Shown here piece by piece: positions 44,872 through 59,089 of a DNA stretch of 64,000 bases. The stretch comes from Bacteroidales bacterium UBA4070 (GTDB lineage: Bacteria; Bacteroidota; Bacteroidia; Bacteroidales; VadinHA17): assembly GCA_002383485.1 (NCBI GenBank), contig DFYY01000013.1, forward strand, positions 40,270 through 104,269, given 5' to 3'. A program made the translations under genes and the position numbers. Below the pieces are notes generated by a model. The model saw only the letters and a list, made by a program, of their open reading frames with translations, did not search any database and was not told the DNA's origin. The stretch's first letter is position 1; each line of letters opens with the position of its first letter.

Positions 44872-44879
44872 ATCAGAGA

Positions 44880-44937
44880 ATTTACGATTTACGATTTTCG
44901 ATTGTAGATTTATTCGCAATTCAAACATCGCAAATCC
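44880..44937. repeat. Self-complementary pair of heptamer arrays filling the MFS-PHP intergenic gap
   Basis: ATTTACG ATTTACG ATTTTCG ATTGTAG then TATTCGC AATTCAA ACATCGC AAATCC. Confidence 0.75.
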
Positions 44938-46386
44938 CTATTGCCTATTGCCTGTATTATTTCCTGCCGCATCCCTGCCCCTCAGGATTAATCTGTCGTA
45001 CAGATACAGCAGTATGCTGGCTGCAACGGCTATTGCCGTGAAGAGCACCCACACCTTTGAAGGGTTGTATGTATCCCAGAGATAGCGGGTCAGTTCCTGT
45101 GCATTCATCCCGAAGAGCTCCTGCGCCATGTTGAAATAGTCGGTCTGTGTAAAACTGTCCGAAATAGCTGGTATGTCAAATCCTTTTTCTGCGACTGCCT
45201 GTTTCAGCAGGTAGAGCTTGTCAGCCATCTTTTCGTACGGTCTGCCTGAGATCCATCCGGCCCCAATGTGTCCGAGCGCTATGGGCAGGAATGCGGTTCC
45301 CATGTACAATGCCTTGCGGTCAGCGGGAGCAATGCCTCCCAGATATTCCTGCACCTTGGGTGATGAAGCCATCTCGCCGATGCCAAAGATCAGCACGCCA
45401 AGCACAATTATCCACGGATTGAGATTGGCGAACATCATTCCCAGCCCGAAGGCAAGGATAAAAATCCCGGTCATGATGCTGTTAAGCGGCTTGACCCTGG
45501 CGGTTATGGATGAGATAATAAGCTGAAACAGAATAATGAAGAACGAGGCCAGGCTCGATATGGTGACTGTGGTTATAGTTCCCGGGTCAAGTCCCAGTGA
45601 TGCTGACATCCCGTCGAGGTTCACCCATGACTCGAGGAAGACGGGGAAAGAGTAATATAGCTGGTTATATGCTGTCCAGAATACGCCAATGATGAGCAGG
45701 AACAGCAGGAACCTCCAGTCGGTGAGTGTCACCCCGATATTTCTGAAAGCGATCCCGATATTCTTCAGAAAGCCCTGTCCGTTGTCGGTCACAGCCGGTT
45801 CCTTGTAGAAGAAGAGGGTTATGATGAGGTTAAGGGCCATGGCGGCGATAGACATATAAAAGACAATATCCCAGCTCTCCTTGTAGAGCAGGCTGGCTAC
45901 AAACGGGCCGATGAAGCCGCCGATATTGACCACCATGTAAAAGATGCCGAATCCGAGGGATGCTGTCTCTCTGTTTGTCACCCGGGCAACGGTGCCTGAG
46001 ATAAGGGGCTTGAAGAGCGCTCCGGCCACTGCCAGTAATATGAATGCTGCGAAGATCGAGCCGAAGGTCTCGAACCTGCCAAGCATGAAGAATGACAGTA
46101 TATAGGTCAGGAATGAAACAATAAGGACCTTTTTGTAGCCCACCCTGTCAGCTATGGCTCCGGTTATTACGGGGAGGAAATAGAGTATCATTGACGCCGT
46201 GCCCATTATGGTTCCCTTCTCCACGTTTGTAAAGCCAAGGGCTCCATCCTCCTTTGGAGAGGTGAGGTAGAGGGCTATGAAACCATTGTAAAAGGCATAC
46301 CATCCCCAGCGTTCGAACAGTTCAATCAGGTTGGAGATCCAGAATAGCCTGGGAAATTTCTTGAGTGTCTGGGCAAAGCTGCTCAT
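44938..46386 (-). CDS. MFS transporter, POT/PTR peptide-transporter-like
   Basis: IELFERWGWY (ExxERxxxY-like), GAIADRVG, GALFKP, FYMVVNIGG motifs; many TM segments. Confidence 0.88.
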   Translation of the reverse strand: MSSFAQTLKKFPRLFWISNLIELFERWGWYAFYNGFIALYLTSPKEDGALGFTNVEKGTIMGTASMILYFLPVITGAIADRVGYKKVLIVSFLTYILSFFMLGRFETFGSIFAAFILLAVAGALFKPLISGTVARVTNRETASLGFGIFYMVVNIGGFIGPFVASLLYKESWDIVFYMSIAAMALNLIITLFFYKEPAVTDNGQGFLKNIGIAFRNIGVTLTDWRFLLFLLIIGVFWTAYNQLYYSFPVFLESWVNLDGMSASLGLDPGTITTVTISSLASFFIILFQLIISSITARVKPLNSIMTGIFILAFGLGMMFANLNPWIIVLGVLIFGIGEMASSPKVQEYLGGIAPADRKALYMGTAFLPIALGHIGAGWISGRPYEKMADKLYLLKQAVAEKGFDIPAISDSFTQTDYFNMAQELFGMNAQELTRYLWDTYNPSKVWVLFTAIAVAASILLYLYDRLILRGRDAAGNNTGNRQ

Positions 46387-56090: not shown

Positions 56091-56543
56091 ATGAAAGCTT
56101 CAACTTTTTTTACTCCTGAACAGCAGGAGACAATAATCAGGGCCATTGCAGAGGCCGAGCATGCAACCTCGGGCGAGATCCGCGTGCACATAGAGACATC
56201 GTGCAAGGTGAATGTGCTTGATGAAGCGGCCTGGCTGTTCAGAAAGGTAGGAATGCACAAGACTGCTGACCGGAATGGTGTGCTTATATACCTGGCACTT
56301 AAGGAGCGTAATTTCGCCATAATAGGCGATTCAGGGATTAATGCGGTTGTCCCCCCGGGTTTCTGGGACGCCATTCGTGATCACATGCAACAAAAGTTCA
56401 GTGAAGGGCTGTATGCCGATGGGCTCGCTGATGGAGTCAGAATGGCCGGGGAGAAGCTCAGGGAGCACTTCCCCAGATCGAAAGATGATGTCAATGAGCT
56501 CACCGATGCCATCTCGTTTGACAATAACGAAACTGGATCATGA
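56091..56543 (+). CDS. TPM-domain protein (short)
   Basis: AEHATSGEIRVHIE, RNGVLIY, AIIGDSGI, DDVNELTD motifs; lemA-TPM-TPM cluster. Confidence 0.9.
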   Translation: MKASTFFTPEQQETIIRAIAEAEHATSGEIRVHIETSCKVNVLDEAAWLFRKVGMHKTADRNGVLIYLALKERNFAIIGDSGINAVVPPGFWDAIRDHMQQKFSEGLYADGLADGVRMAGEKLREHFPRSKDDVNELTDAISFDNNETGS

Positions 56544-57361
56544 GAAAGAAAGCGAACAGATTCGTTCTGTCAACTGTCATCTGGTTACTTGCAGCCTTTG
56601 TTATACAGGCTCAGCCCCTGCTGCCAAGGCCAGAGCCGCCACGGCTGGTCAATGACCTGGCTGGGGTGCTGTCTGCGGGAGAAGTGCAGGCTCTTGAAAA
56701 TAAGCTCGTTGCTTTCAATGATTCCACATCCAATCAGATTGCCGTCGTTATAGTAAGCGACCTTCAGGGTTATGACCGCTCTGATTTTGCATACAGGGTA
56801 GCGCGCGACTGGGGAGTTGGGCAGGGTGATTTCAACAACGGATTGCTGGTACTTGTCAGGCCAAAAACAACCGATACAAACGGACAGGTGTTCATTGCCA
56901 CAGGCTACGGCCTTGAGGGTGCTATTCCTGATATTGCATGTGCTGAAATCATTGACAGGGAGATCATTCCGAGATTCAGGGAGAATGATTACTACGGAGG
57001 TATTGATGCCGGTACCAATGTGCTGATGGCTCTGGCAGCCGGTGAATACAGCTATGACAACTACGCGGGAGGGAGTTCATCGGGTGCAATACCGGGAGTG
57101 GTCATCTTCCTGATAATACTCTTCTTTATCTTCATCATCTCTGCCGGCAGCTCCAACAACAAGCATCTGAGGCGTACCGGATCATCCAACCTGCCACTGT
57201 GGCTCCTTATGGGCATGCTGGGCGGTGGCCGGTCGCACACTGGCAGCTGGGGAGGATTCTCCGGCGGCAGCGGTGGCGGCGGTTTCAGTGGCGGCGGAGG
57301 TGGCTTCGGTGGTTTCGGAGGCGGCGGCTTTGGCGGCGGCGGAGCAGGGGGAAGCTGGTAG
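56540..57361 (+). CDS. TPM-domain membrane protein (YgcG-like) with Gly-rich tail
   Basis: VNDLAGVLS, WGVG..DFNNGLLVLV, IATGYGLEG, GGGFGGGGAGGSW. Confidence 0.92.
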   Translation: MRKKANRFVLSTVIWLLAAFVIQAQPLLPRPEPPRLVNDLAGVLSAGEVQALENKLVAFNDSTSNQIAVVIVSDLQGYDRSDFAYRVARDWGVGQGDFNNGLLVLVRPKTTDTNGQVFIATGYGLEGAIPDIACAEIIDREIIPRFRENDYYGGIDAGTNVLMALAAGEYSYDNYAGGSSSGAIPGVVIFLIILFFIFIISAGSSNNKHLRRTGSSNLPLWLLMGMLGGGRSHTGSWGGFSGGSGGGGFSGGGGGFGGFGGGGFGGGGAGGSW

Positions 57362-57396
57362 ATTTGCGATTGGCGAATTGCGATTTTCGATTTAGG
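57362..57396 (+). repeat. Left heptamer array
   Basis: ATTTGCG ATTGGCG AATTGCG ATTTTCG ATTTAGG starting right after the TPM stop codon. Confidence 0.8.
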
Positions 57397-57457
57397 TTTT
57401 TTTGAATTTCAGATTGTTTTGGATTAACTTTCAGTTTCCTAATCAGGTGGAATAATT

Positions 57458-57829
57458 ATGGGACTGAAGGAAAAAATGCAGCTTCGTACCAGGAATCATG
57501 CTCTGGAAGTAATATCGTTATGTAATCAGTTATCTCGCAACACACAAAATCAGATTATCAGTAAGCAACTCCTTAGAGCCTCCTGCTCCGTTGGGGCGAA
57601 TTACAGGGCAGTTGCAAGGGCTAAATCGACCGCTGACTTTATCAACAAACTGTATGTTGTTGAAGAAGAAGCTGACGAGGCACTCTTCTGGCTTGAATTA
57701 TTGCTGGAGCTTGAGCCCGTATTCAAGGATAAGATTCTTGCCTGCAGCTCAGAAATGAACGAAATATTATCAATAGTCGTTACCTCAAGGAAGACGGCCA
57801 GGAAGAATCTGAATAACTTCTCTAATTAA
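57458..57829 (+). CDS. Four-helix-bundle protein (TIGR02436 / 23S rRNA-IVS / Avd-like family)
   Basis: KQLLRASCSVGANYRA, RAKSTADFINKL, EEEADEALFWLELL motif pattern; 123 aa. Confidence 0.9.
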   Translation: MGLKEKMQLRTRNHALEVISLCNQLSRNTQNQIISKQLLRASCSVGANYRAVARAKSTADFINKLYVVEEEADEALFWLELLLELEPVFKDKILACSSEMNEILSIVVTSRKTARKNLNNFSN

Positions 57830-57854
57830 GCCTGCCCACCACTCCTCATTTCTT

Positions 57855-57889
57855 AATTCGCAACTCGCAACTCGCAACTCGCAACTCCC
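57855..57889 (-). repeat. Right heptamer array, inverted relative to the left array
   Basis: AATTCGC AACTCGC AACTCGC AACTCGC AACTCCC, abutting the rluD stop codon. Confidence 0.9.
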
Positions 57890-59089
57890 TCAGTCTCTGC
57901 CTGAGACATAATTCCTCCACTTCTCAATGACCGCAACCATGTCCGGGGGGATTGGCGCCTCAAAGTAGAGTCGCTTGCCGGTTACGGGGTGGTCGAATGA
58001 GAGGGTGCGGGCATGAAGAGCCTGACGGGGGAGCATCTCGAAGCAGTTGCGCACAAACTGCTGATATTTGGTAAATGTGGTGCCTTTAAGTATACGGTGG
58101 CCTCCGTACTCCTCATCATTGAAGAGAGGGTGGCCCTTCCAGGCCATATGTACCCTGATCTGGTGCGTGCGGCCTGTCTCCAGGCGGCACTCAATAAGGG
58201 AGACGTAGCCCAGAGGTTCAATAATCCTGTAGTGAGTTACAGCGTGTTTCCCCTGGCTGCCGTCATGGAATACCTGCATGATCTTCCTGTCACGGATGTT
58301 ACGGCCCACATTGCCGGTGATGGTTCCTTCGGCCGGTTCCGGGGTACCCCACACCAGGGCTGTATAGAGACGGCCTGTAGTGCGTTTGAAGAACTGACGG
58401 GCAAGCCTGTTATGGGCATACTCGTTCTTTGCCACAACCAGCAGTCCCGAGGTGTTCTTGTCAATCCTGTGAACGAGGCCCGGTCTCAGCTCTCCGGTGT
58501 TGAAAAGGGGCAGGTCACGGAAGTGAAACATAAGGGCATTCATCAGGGTTCCGGAATAGTTACCGTATGCAGGATGAACCACCATTCCGGCTGCCTTGTC
58601 AACAACTATCAGATCATCATCTTCGTACACCACGCTGACAGGCAGATCCTGGGGGATGAGTTCTATCTCGCGCGGCGGATTGGGGAGAAGTATCTGGATA
58701 ATATCCAGTGGTTTGACACGGTAATTGGGTTTAACGGCCGATTCATTTACAAGTATGTTTCCGGCCTGGGCTGCTGCCTGTATCCTCGTGCGCGAAGCGT
58801 TCTCTATCCGGGCTGAGAGGTATTTGTCGATACGAAGCATTGACTGTCCCGGATCAACCACGTAGCGGTAGTGCTCGTATAACTCAGTCTCGGTCTCGGG
58901 CTCAAGCTCAGTCCCGGTCTCCGGCTCTGGCTCAGTCTCAAGCCCCGGCGCCGTATCCGGTTCCTGCTCAGGTACCCTATCCCAGAACTGATCCGGTTTA
59001 GGCTCCTGATCCTTTAGCTGACTCTGAAGCTGATCCTGTTCGTGTGCCTGTTTCTGAGCCCTGATCCGGGTGAGTTTCTTTTTGCCCAT
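57890..59089 (-). CDS. rluD: RluA/RluD-family pseudouridine synthase with acidic N-terminal extension
   Basis: S4-like RIDKYL; VVHPAYGNYSGTLMNAL, GLVHRIDKNTSG, ETGRTHQIRVH, RQALHA. Confidence 0.93.
   Translation of the reverse strand: MGKKKLTRIRAQKQAHEQDQLQSQLKDQEPKPDQFWDRVPEQEPDTAPGLETEPEPETGTELEPETETELYEHYRYVVDPGQSMLRIDKYLSARIENASRTRIQAAAQAGNILVNESAVKPNYRVKPLDIIQILLPNPPREIELIPQDLPVSVVYEDDDLIVVDKAAGMVVHPAYGNYSGTLMNALMFHFRDLPLFNTGELRPGLVHRIDKNTSGLLVVAKNEYAHNRLARQFFKRTTGRLYTALVWGTPEPAEGTITGNVGRNIRDRKIMQVFHDGSQGKHAVTHYRIIEPLGYVSLIECRLETGRTHQIRVHMAWKGHPLFNDEEYGGHRILKGTTFTKYQQFVRNCFEMLPRQALHARTLSFDHPVTGKRLYFEAPIPPDMVAVIEKWRNYVSGRD

Follow-up and report, generated by a model that had tools for sequence, protein, structure and literature searches.

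A PF05635 four-helix-bundle gene between inverted heptamer arrays at the TPM-rluD junction of an uncultured Bacteroidales: a candidate resident cassette resembling intervening sequences

Intervening sequences that carry an open reading frame (ORF) of the S23p type are found in the 23S rRNA genes of Leptospira, Coxiella burnetii, Xanthomonas and Brucella. The S23p/PF05635 family to which these ORFs belong is very widespread and has solved structures, and we know of no function for it outside Avd, the accessory protein of diversity-generating retroelements (DGRs); to our knowledge the family, the ORF-bearing 23S rRNA intervening sequences and the excess of heptamers past bacterial stop codons have each gone without explanation for decades. 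Avd, a basic pentamer, makes contact with RNA in the retroelement complex. Repetitive extragenic palindromes (REPs) are imperfect palindromes, and the REP-associated tyrosine transposase (RAYT) is an HUH tyrosine (Y1) transposase. In Coxiella, excision of the S23p-bearing intervening sequence by RNase III has been shown and tandem heptamers are present (PMC4990558). Heptameric repeats near stop codons have been described as GGGNATC of Xanthomonas and Nostoc and as the short tandemly repeated repetitive (STRR) sequences of cyanobacteria, with no link made to PF05635 genes (PMC4692102). Genes designated 23S_rRNA_IVP that are wedged between cas genes have been read as CRISPR-associated, with no description of flanking heptamer arrays (PMC3936711). 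A full-text literature search found no paper linking PF05635 genes outside rRNA to inverted heptamer arrays, or describing such a cassette outside rRNA. The subject of this work is a gene of the same family, encoding a four-helix-bundle (4HB) protein of 123 aa, which lies between two inverted heptamer arrays at the junction of a TPM-domain gene and an rluD gene. The locus is contained in a stretch of 64,000 nt (hereafter the window, i.e. the whole stretch of DNA that was analysed; contig DFYY01000013.1, positions 40,270 to 104,269) of Bacteroidales bacterium UBA4070, an uncultured metagenome-assembled genome of 3.43 Mb in 56 contigs obtained from a hydrocarbon metagenome. We propose, with a probability of about 0.55, that the locus is a resident, intervening-sequence-like cassette occupying the loop of a hairpin, that its arms flip and delete it, and that its protein acts on arrays of heptamers. 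Its parts, in window coordinates, are listed below.

56540..57361, + strand: TPM-domain gene, 273 aa (PF04536, E 5e-38); stop codon TAG at 57359-57361, the left array starting at the next base
57362..57396, + strand: left arm, five heptamers (ATTTGCG ATTGGCG AATTGCG ATTTTCG ATTTAGG), sense relative to TPM
57397..57457, + strand: leader, 61 nt, which flips with the 4HB gene (aligned leaders of 13 species, both orientations)
57458..57829, + strand: 4HB gene, 123 aa, PF05635/TIGR02436 (evidence from profiles, structure and the ratio of nonsynonymous to synonymous substitution rates, dN/dS)
57830..57854, + strand: spacer of 25 nt from the 4HB stop to the right arm, as read from the sequence
57855..57889, - strand: right arm, five heptamers (the + strand reads AATTCGC AACTCGC AACTCGC AACTCGC AACTCCC)
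57890..59089, - strand: RluD-type pseudouridine synthase gene (S4 and PseudoU_synth_2 domains), convergent with TPM; its stop reads TCA on the + strand at 57890-57892

The initial annotation, made from the letters alone, had set the two arrays against the TPM and rluD stops on either side of the 123-aa ORF, and direct reading of the coordinates agrees with it in every detail. On the - strand the right arm reads GGGAGTT GCGAGTT GCGAGTT GCGAGTT GCGAATT, i.e. it is sense for rluD, lies directly past the rluD stop and is inverted relative to the left arm. Both arms are repeats of period 7 (4.7 and 4.3 copies by Tandem Repeats Finder) and are complementary to each other at 81% over 26 nt and 72% over 50 nt. 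The further proposal that the arms can pair and loop out the ORF is also borne out, in that the minimum-energy and centroid structures of a 540-nt RNA both show them paired as three short helices, and this terminal stem is the sole notable element of the cassette fold. The ORF is, as had been noticed on sampled lines, richer in A+T than its neighbours, with a G+C content of 42.5% vs 54-55% for TPM and rluD.

The association of PF05635 genes with inverted arrays is specific. When a complementarity of at least 17/20 between the two 130-nt flanks of a gene was used as the test, 18 of the 23 4HB genes of the genus passed, vs 1 of 600 random genes of the source genome. Among 44 relatives from named genomes (drawn from Bacteroidota, KSB1, Nitrospirota, Acidobacteriota, Verrucomicrobiota, Omnitrophota, Clostridia and others) the test was passed by 26, nearly all of them with period-7 or period-8 arrays on both sides; the enrichment of arrays around family members that had been supposed at the outset is thus present both within and outside the genus. 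The genus holds several distant 4HB subfamilies, just 27-36% identical to the gene of the present locus (the A type), each with its own arms (AAGAATT, AAGGTTA, AAGA(C/T)AA, GATTTAG and others), which usually form an inverted pair filling the spacer. No other single gene was found between inverted arrays in the source genome. Since the PF05635 family is so favoured between arrays, any account by pure coincidence or passive carriage must explain why.

All 14 orthologues found sit at the TPM-rluD junction, seven reading along TPM and seven along rluD, a distribution that takes at least four changes of orientation on the tree of the flanks and at least three on the tree of the 4HB gene. Loci L055 and L058 share the TPM-side arm (TAG GATTTGC GATTTGC (GATTTGC) GATTGTC GATTTA), which is followed by the leader in one and by the 3' end of the gene in the other, and the same pattern of a shared arm and a flipped interior is seen when L059 and L064 are compared with L057. 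Each side, TPM or rluD, retains the unit variants of its own arm across the flips. As read from these alignments, each arm remains next to its flanking gene while the interior alone is turned round, which argues for recombination between the inverted arms rather than excision and re-insertion of an arm-bearing element. A second cassette, of the B type with AAGAATT arms, adjoins the 3' end of one and the same aminotransferase gene in seven species, among which both orientations occur. This cassette was compared in L010, L014 and L015 vs L019 and L013/L017; the neighbour on its far side differs in two species.

Filled and empty TPM-rluD junctions, which the initial annotation had wished to see compared, both exist. 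TPM and rluD adjoin without the 4HB gene in another 23 species of the genus. In G045 one base separates the two stops; in G011, G010, G024 and G018 a single TTGCG-like unit is left; in G005, G019, G041, G007 and G012 the junction holds gene-less inverted arrays of another heptamer (TCAGTCN / NGACTGC); and the remaining empty junctions carry yet other arrays. Three clades of the TPM tree contain the filled alleles, and the empty G011 and G045 alleles branch within one of these clades, which fits an old cassette that was lost several times. Whole-cassette deletions, judged from the aligned junctions, have left zero or one heptamer unit. The interiors have been exchanged between lineages as well, as shown by a mosaic structure and discordant trees: the leader and first 15 codons of G022 are 89-96% identical to G000/G006, and past codon 15 the gene is 76-89% identical to G003 and just 53-76% to G000; when G000 is compared with G022, the synonymous divergence (dS) of the 4HB gene is 4.6 vs 0.70 for the adjacent TPM gene; and L055 groups with L058 by its flanks and with G000 by its cassette.

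Unit number varies between species and strains, and a 7-nt deletion amounting to one left-arm unit was seen at 57394 in metagenome runs X8 and X10. The contigs of eight metagenome runs held no strand-changing joints and only the window orientation, contigs being unable to exclude a minor form. An apparent empty-allele joint (57394 to 57853) in several runs was discarded; it has just 25 nt on one side and is the gene-less hairpin C8:27207-27264 of the same genome. No target duplication, transposase or second insertion site was seen for the cassette. Residence at one junction in 14 species while synonymous sites are saturated indicates an old resident, and on this comparative evidence the cassette is an old resident with losses and not a recent insertion. 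The mobile insertion that had been inferred for the locus is not supported by the comparison, given that the arms stay with TPM and rluD on flipping, that a single junction is occupied in the 14 species and that target duplication is lacking.

Membership in the TIGR02436 four-helix-bundle family, which the initial annotation had named, was confirmed by profile searches (TIGR02436, E 9e-20, 70.9 bits, cut-off 24; PF05635, E 3e-12, 47 bits, cut-off 33.8), PF05635 being the sole Pfam match of the protein, and by a match to PDB entry 2RLD (BT_0352) with E 7e-17. In the AlphaFold model (predicted local distance difference test score, pLDDT, 96.3) four helices span residues 3-23, 29-53, 58-85 and 87-122 in an up-down four-helix bundle. 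Its template modelling (TM) scores are 0.79-0.89 to 2RLD and 0.76-0.84 to 2GSC (Xcc0516), each of which matches with five chains (A-E), and 0.72-0.83 to Avd, both alone (4DWL) and within the DGR ribonucleoprotein (8UB7). According to the model, the 4HB protein is folded like the S23p and Avd proteins, which are pentameric. Of the family motif GxxRxxxSxxxNxxE (PMC3936711), R40, S44 and N48 are present and the position of the final Glu is occupied by Ala51 (GANYRA); Ala is found there across the subfamily alignment (32 relatives), and 2RLD has GANIRE. Neither the Pfam scan nor the model (123 aa, four helices) contains a nuclease, recombinase or HUH domain. The dN/dS values of 0.04-0.15 in the A and B subfamilies (0.05-0.14 for the 4HB gene of this locus), taken from pairs with unsaturated dS, place the 4HB protein under purifying selection, from which we conclude that the protein is produced and required. 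The arm unit stays TTGCG-like in all species across this divergence. Some cassette copies contain in-frame stop codons (L061; L011 and L022 of G043), i.e. decay also occurs.

The two arms are members of a dispersed array family, (A/G)NTTGCG. A scan for units with at most one mismatch from TTGCGA, at period 7 and with at least three units, detected 82 arrays in the source genome, 77 of them intergenic, vs 4 in the reversed-genome control, and the concern that the arrays might be random microsatellites is thereby answered. The same genome contains exactly one TIGR02436 gene. The suspected placement just past stop codons is likewise found, for arrays with or without a gene between them: with arrays oriented to read TTGCGA, 39 of the 68 in called spacers begin at most 15 nt past a co-oriented stop, compared to 14.7 expected and a maximum of 26 in 2000 trials in which position and strand were randomised within the same spacers. 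In spacers of at least 150 nt this holds for 12 of 34 arrays vs 1.7 expected, and antisense stop-abutting cases number 0. The junction often consists of the stop codon and GGA or GA followed by the first unit (rluD, TGA-GGGA-GTTGCGA; TPM, TAG-A-TTTGCGA). There are 12 hairpin-type array pairs in the genome, which arise where genes converge and two stop-proximal arrays face each other; 11 are gene-less with loops of 9-88 nt, and the TPM-rluD locus has a loop of 466 nt. About 58 arrays of the same family are solo. The family is genus-specific, being present in 20 of 24 same-genus genomes vs none of 16 other families of the order. The idea of a repeat-delimited cassette therefore stands in part: gene and inverted arms do recur as a unit, but the arms are two of about 82 arrays in a genome with one TIGR02436 gene.

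One of the 12 hairpin-type pairs, a gene-less one of the same heptamer family, lies in the window:

44875..44960, - strand: hairpin reaching from the stop of an MFS-type gene (CTA, 44938-44940) to the start of the next gene

It is composed of TTTGCGA-type units past the stop, a short loop and then ATTTACG/ATTTTCG units; its arms are nested, since a CTATTGC array further out overlaps the stop codon. A second heptamer family, (A/C)AGGCA(A/G)T / ATTGCCT, is often found between the stop and the TTGCG array (C28:140905, C52:64800, C35:179460 and window 44938-44953); the repeat holds TAG in some frames, and some genes may draw their stop codon from it. Outside the window, at a contig end (C31:48047-48175), there are three 43-nt tandem copies of a higher-order unit made of ATCAAGAG, four TTGCGAG heptamers and AAGATGGCC, i.e. 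a heptamer array plus the palindrome GATGGCCATC. The same-genus genomes G005 and G012 encode TPM proteins that are nearly identical, yet their array counts are 20-50 fold apart (TTGCGA, 108 vs 2; AAGAATT, 55 vs 3), a gap that may reflect burst-like gain or loss, or an assembly effect. The genes around the cassette encode Ddl-like, LemA, two TPM, RluD and T9SS (type IX secretion system)-tailed proteins. The 4HB gene is placed between the protein genes TPM and rluD, outside 23S rRNA, and an Rfam search found no rRNA or other RNA family near threshold at the cassette.

The Bacteroidota promoter consensus is TTTG/TAnnTTTG. The leader contains a promoter-like pair of this type, TTTG (57401-57404) followed after 20 nt by TAACTTTC (57425-57432), and from the consensus we infer that this pair is the cassette's own promoter. 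The 11 nt directly before the ATG, GTGGAATAATT (57447-57457), are kept in 12 of 13 species and move with the gene on flipping. The slightly longer block GTGGAATAATTATG (57447-57460, + strand) is kept in 12 of the 13 orthologous cassettes despite a protein identity of just about 60%; at 12 of 14 positions it agrees with the 3' coding end of rluD, GTGGAGGAATTATG (57907-57920, - strand), a likeness that may be due to chance, to a regulatory site or to an old duplication. A sigma-70 scan of the cassette, which does not model Bacteroidota promoters, gave nothing on the + strand in the leader; a weak sigma-70-like match on the - strand inside the ORF (57726-57697) was set aside, one match vs a shuffle mean of 0.7 being no excess. 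A scan of the cassette for intrinsic terminators found no terminator-like site.

In the cassette as we propose it, the two arms would anneal in read-through RNA from TPM or rluD, giving a stem that is imperfect and periodic, and RNase III would cut this stem, by analogy with the 23S rRNA intervening sequences, insulating the neighbouring messages; the 4HB gene would additionally be read from its own promoter. The protein, predicted to form a ring-shaped pentamer, would bind tandem heptamers on RNA or single-stranded DNA, five subunits facing the usual 3-6 units, and the predicted binding would cover its own arms as well as the dispersed arrays. At the DNA level, as the comparison of species shows, the arms act as recombination sites by which the interior is flipped, exchanged and deleted.

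A number of observations weigh against this proposal. With about 16 pairs spread over three helices the arm stem is weak, and the 540-nt stretch is no more stable than its shuffles (folding energy z 0.11). In several orthologues the arms differ by one or two bases per unit, indicating that perfect pairing is not maintained. A start at the cassette's own promoter would leave the left arm outside the transcript. The sole RNA trace is a 151-nt contig identical to part of the ORF (57581-57731) in a wastewater metatranscriptome (run X25), in which no stem, cut or co-transcription is shown; TPM and rluD are matched in that run only by short, poorly matching pieces, and the contig is a weak hint that the 4HB gene is transcribed on its own. 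It was set aside as evidence of RNA processing, on which it cannot speak with its flanks uncovered. Arm heptamers do not covary with protein relatedness (rho -0.08, permutation p 0.23; 23 representatives with <60% identity), and arrays occur without the matching gene: TTGCGA arrays number 108 in G005 and 45 in G015, both lacking the A-type gene, and AAGAATT arrays are numerous in G016, G017 and G019, all lacking the B-type gene (the control column of the AAGAATT search is unusable, since reversing this pattern yields a rotation of the repeat itself). Taken together, the lack of covariation and the arrays without a matching gene argue against strict sequence-specific recognition by the 4HB protein. 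Two of our own candidate claims were dropped in consequence: co-evolution of arm and protein, as heptamer distance does not fall with protein identity beyond close orthologues, and one array family per 4HB subfamily, of which only a clade-level co-distribution remains.

The same observations can be read as those of a passive passenger, a 4HB gene that landed in a pre-existing hairpin loop, a harmless position between convergent genes, and that is functionally unconnected with the repeats; the arrays would then be simple-sequence elements of the ordinary stop-proximal kind, comparable to cyanobacterial STRR and Xanthomonas GGGNATC, and would have their own role or origin. Besides the missing covariation and the abundance of arrays in genomes without the matching gene, such a passenger would fit the 11 gene-less hairpins and about 58 solo arrays, the gene-less hairpins of other heptamers at the same junction in other species, the arms that stay with the flanks when the gene flips, and the stop-proximal heptamer repeats described without any such gene (PMC4692102). 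It would leave unexplained why PF05635 genes lie between inverted arrays in 18/23 and 26/44 cases vs 1/600 controls when no other single gene is so enclosed in the source genome, and why the same family is found in stem-bounded, heptamer-bearing 23S rRNA intervening sequences (PMC4990558); dN/dS of 0.04-0.15 over saturated dS is also not expected of a neutral passenger, and we regard this explanation as unlikely. A different account takes the arms as terminal inverted repeats and the 4HB protein as the factor responsible for mobility, on the model of REP/RAYT, with the dispersed arrays as non-autonomous derivatives of a unit that transposes to sites just past stop codons. The mobility proposed for ORF-bearing intervening sequences (cited in PMC4990558) is a precedent, and the patchy presence at the junction across three clades, the recurrence of the same design in many phyla, the gene-less arrays of the same heptamer dispersed in the genome and the 20-50 fold difference in array number between the near relatives G005 and G012 are what such an element would produce. 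We consider it improbable, however, in view of a protein without a nuclease, recombinase or HUH domain, the single copy in the genome, the absence of a visible target-site duplication, the position of all 14 orthologues at one junction despite saturated dS, and arms that do not travel with the gene on inversion, each side keeping its own unit variants; the apparent empty-site joint in the reads, which might have favoured it, is the C8 hairpin, another locus.

Invertible phase-variable segments are common in Bacteroidales, and the arms might accordingly be the inverted repeats of a programmed inverton whose interior is flipped within populations by a recombinase. The nearly equal orientations (7 and 7), the sister species that differ in orientation with at least 3-4 flips, and the second subfamily that also occurs in both orientations are all in keeping with it. 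There is, however, no recombinase gene within about 3 kb on either side of the cassette; the leader, with the putative promoter, is inverted together with the gene, so that orientation should not switch the gene on or off; and contigs of the eight metagenome runs, in which a minor form could escape notice, carry only the window orientation. This explanation is in our view very improbable. The resident intervening-sequence-like cassette remains the reading that we prefer, and a wider version of it can be formulated, in which PF05635 pentamers are the dedicated partners of tandem-heptamer arrays and each ring reads about five 7-nt units on RNA or single-stranded DNA. We offer this version tentatively and think it rather unlikely. 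If it is true, a single gene would serve some 80 stop-abutting arrays, either as a post-transcriptional system of 3' ends or as a factor for the maintenance and spreading of selfish repeats; the 23S rRNA intervening sequences, the cyanobacterial STRR and the Bacteroidales arrays would be facets of one protein-repeat system; and the gene copy would live in, and be flipped by, its own repeats.

Among the described systems, the ORF-bearing 23S rRNA intervening sequences are like the TPM-rluD cassette in having a PF05635 gene in the loop of a stem built by terminal inverted repeats, a strain-variable number of tandem heptamers (PMC4990558) and a patchy presence among relatives. They differ from it in several respects. 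The cassette is located outside rRNA, between protein genes, with each arm abutting a stop codon; its arms are whole five-heptamer arrays of a family of about 80 copies, whereas the intervening sequence has a unique stem of 28 bp, and in Coxiella that stem is stronger than the one enclosing the 4HB ORF. RNase III excision has been shown for the intervening sequence and is predicted for the cassette; and the Coxiella ORF is decaying and apparently untranslated, in contrast to the 4HB gene with its signature of purifying selection. The alternative offered by the initial annotation, an IVS-like (intervening-sequence-like) or REP/RAYT-like element, holds for its first half, the layout resembling that of ORF-bearing intervening sequences, and fails for its second in the want of a RAYT-like catalytic domain. 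With REP/RAYT the locus shares a single gene flanked by inverted repeat copies and the same repeat dispersed gene-less in intergenic positions after genes; apart from the missing catalytic domain, it differs in having tandem heptamers instead of palindromes and arms that do not move with the gene.

The stop-proximal heptamer repeats (PMC4692102) and the arrays reported here are both intergenic tandem heptamers, mostly of about four units and variable in unit number, that prefer the first 50 bp past a stop on the coding strand. The present unit, (A/G)NTTGCG, is not G-rich, so that no quadruplex is expected, and the arrays are confined to one Bacteroidales genus, often form inverted pairs and are tied to a PF05635 gene. 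Avd has in common with the 4HB protein the predicted four-helix-bundle fold (4DWL and 8UB7); the two differ in that identity is about 11% and that neither a reverse transcriptase nor a template/variable repeat pair lies near the 4HB gene. The 23S_rRNA_IVP genes between cas genes (PMC3936711) are again members of the same family placed exactly between neighbours of unrelated function. The TPM-rluD locus unites in one place the three puzzles of the S23p/PF05635 family, the intervening sequences and the stop-proximal heptamers. It adds comparative evidence on what the repeats do to DNA, i.e. inversion, exchange and deletion of the enclosed gene, together with a protein that is under selection, and it opens a formerly vague association of PF05635 genes with heptamers to direct tests, namely of heptamer binding by the pentamer, of cutting by RNase III, and of the 3' ends and stability of array-bearing messages.

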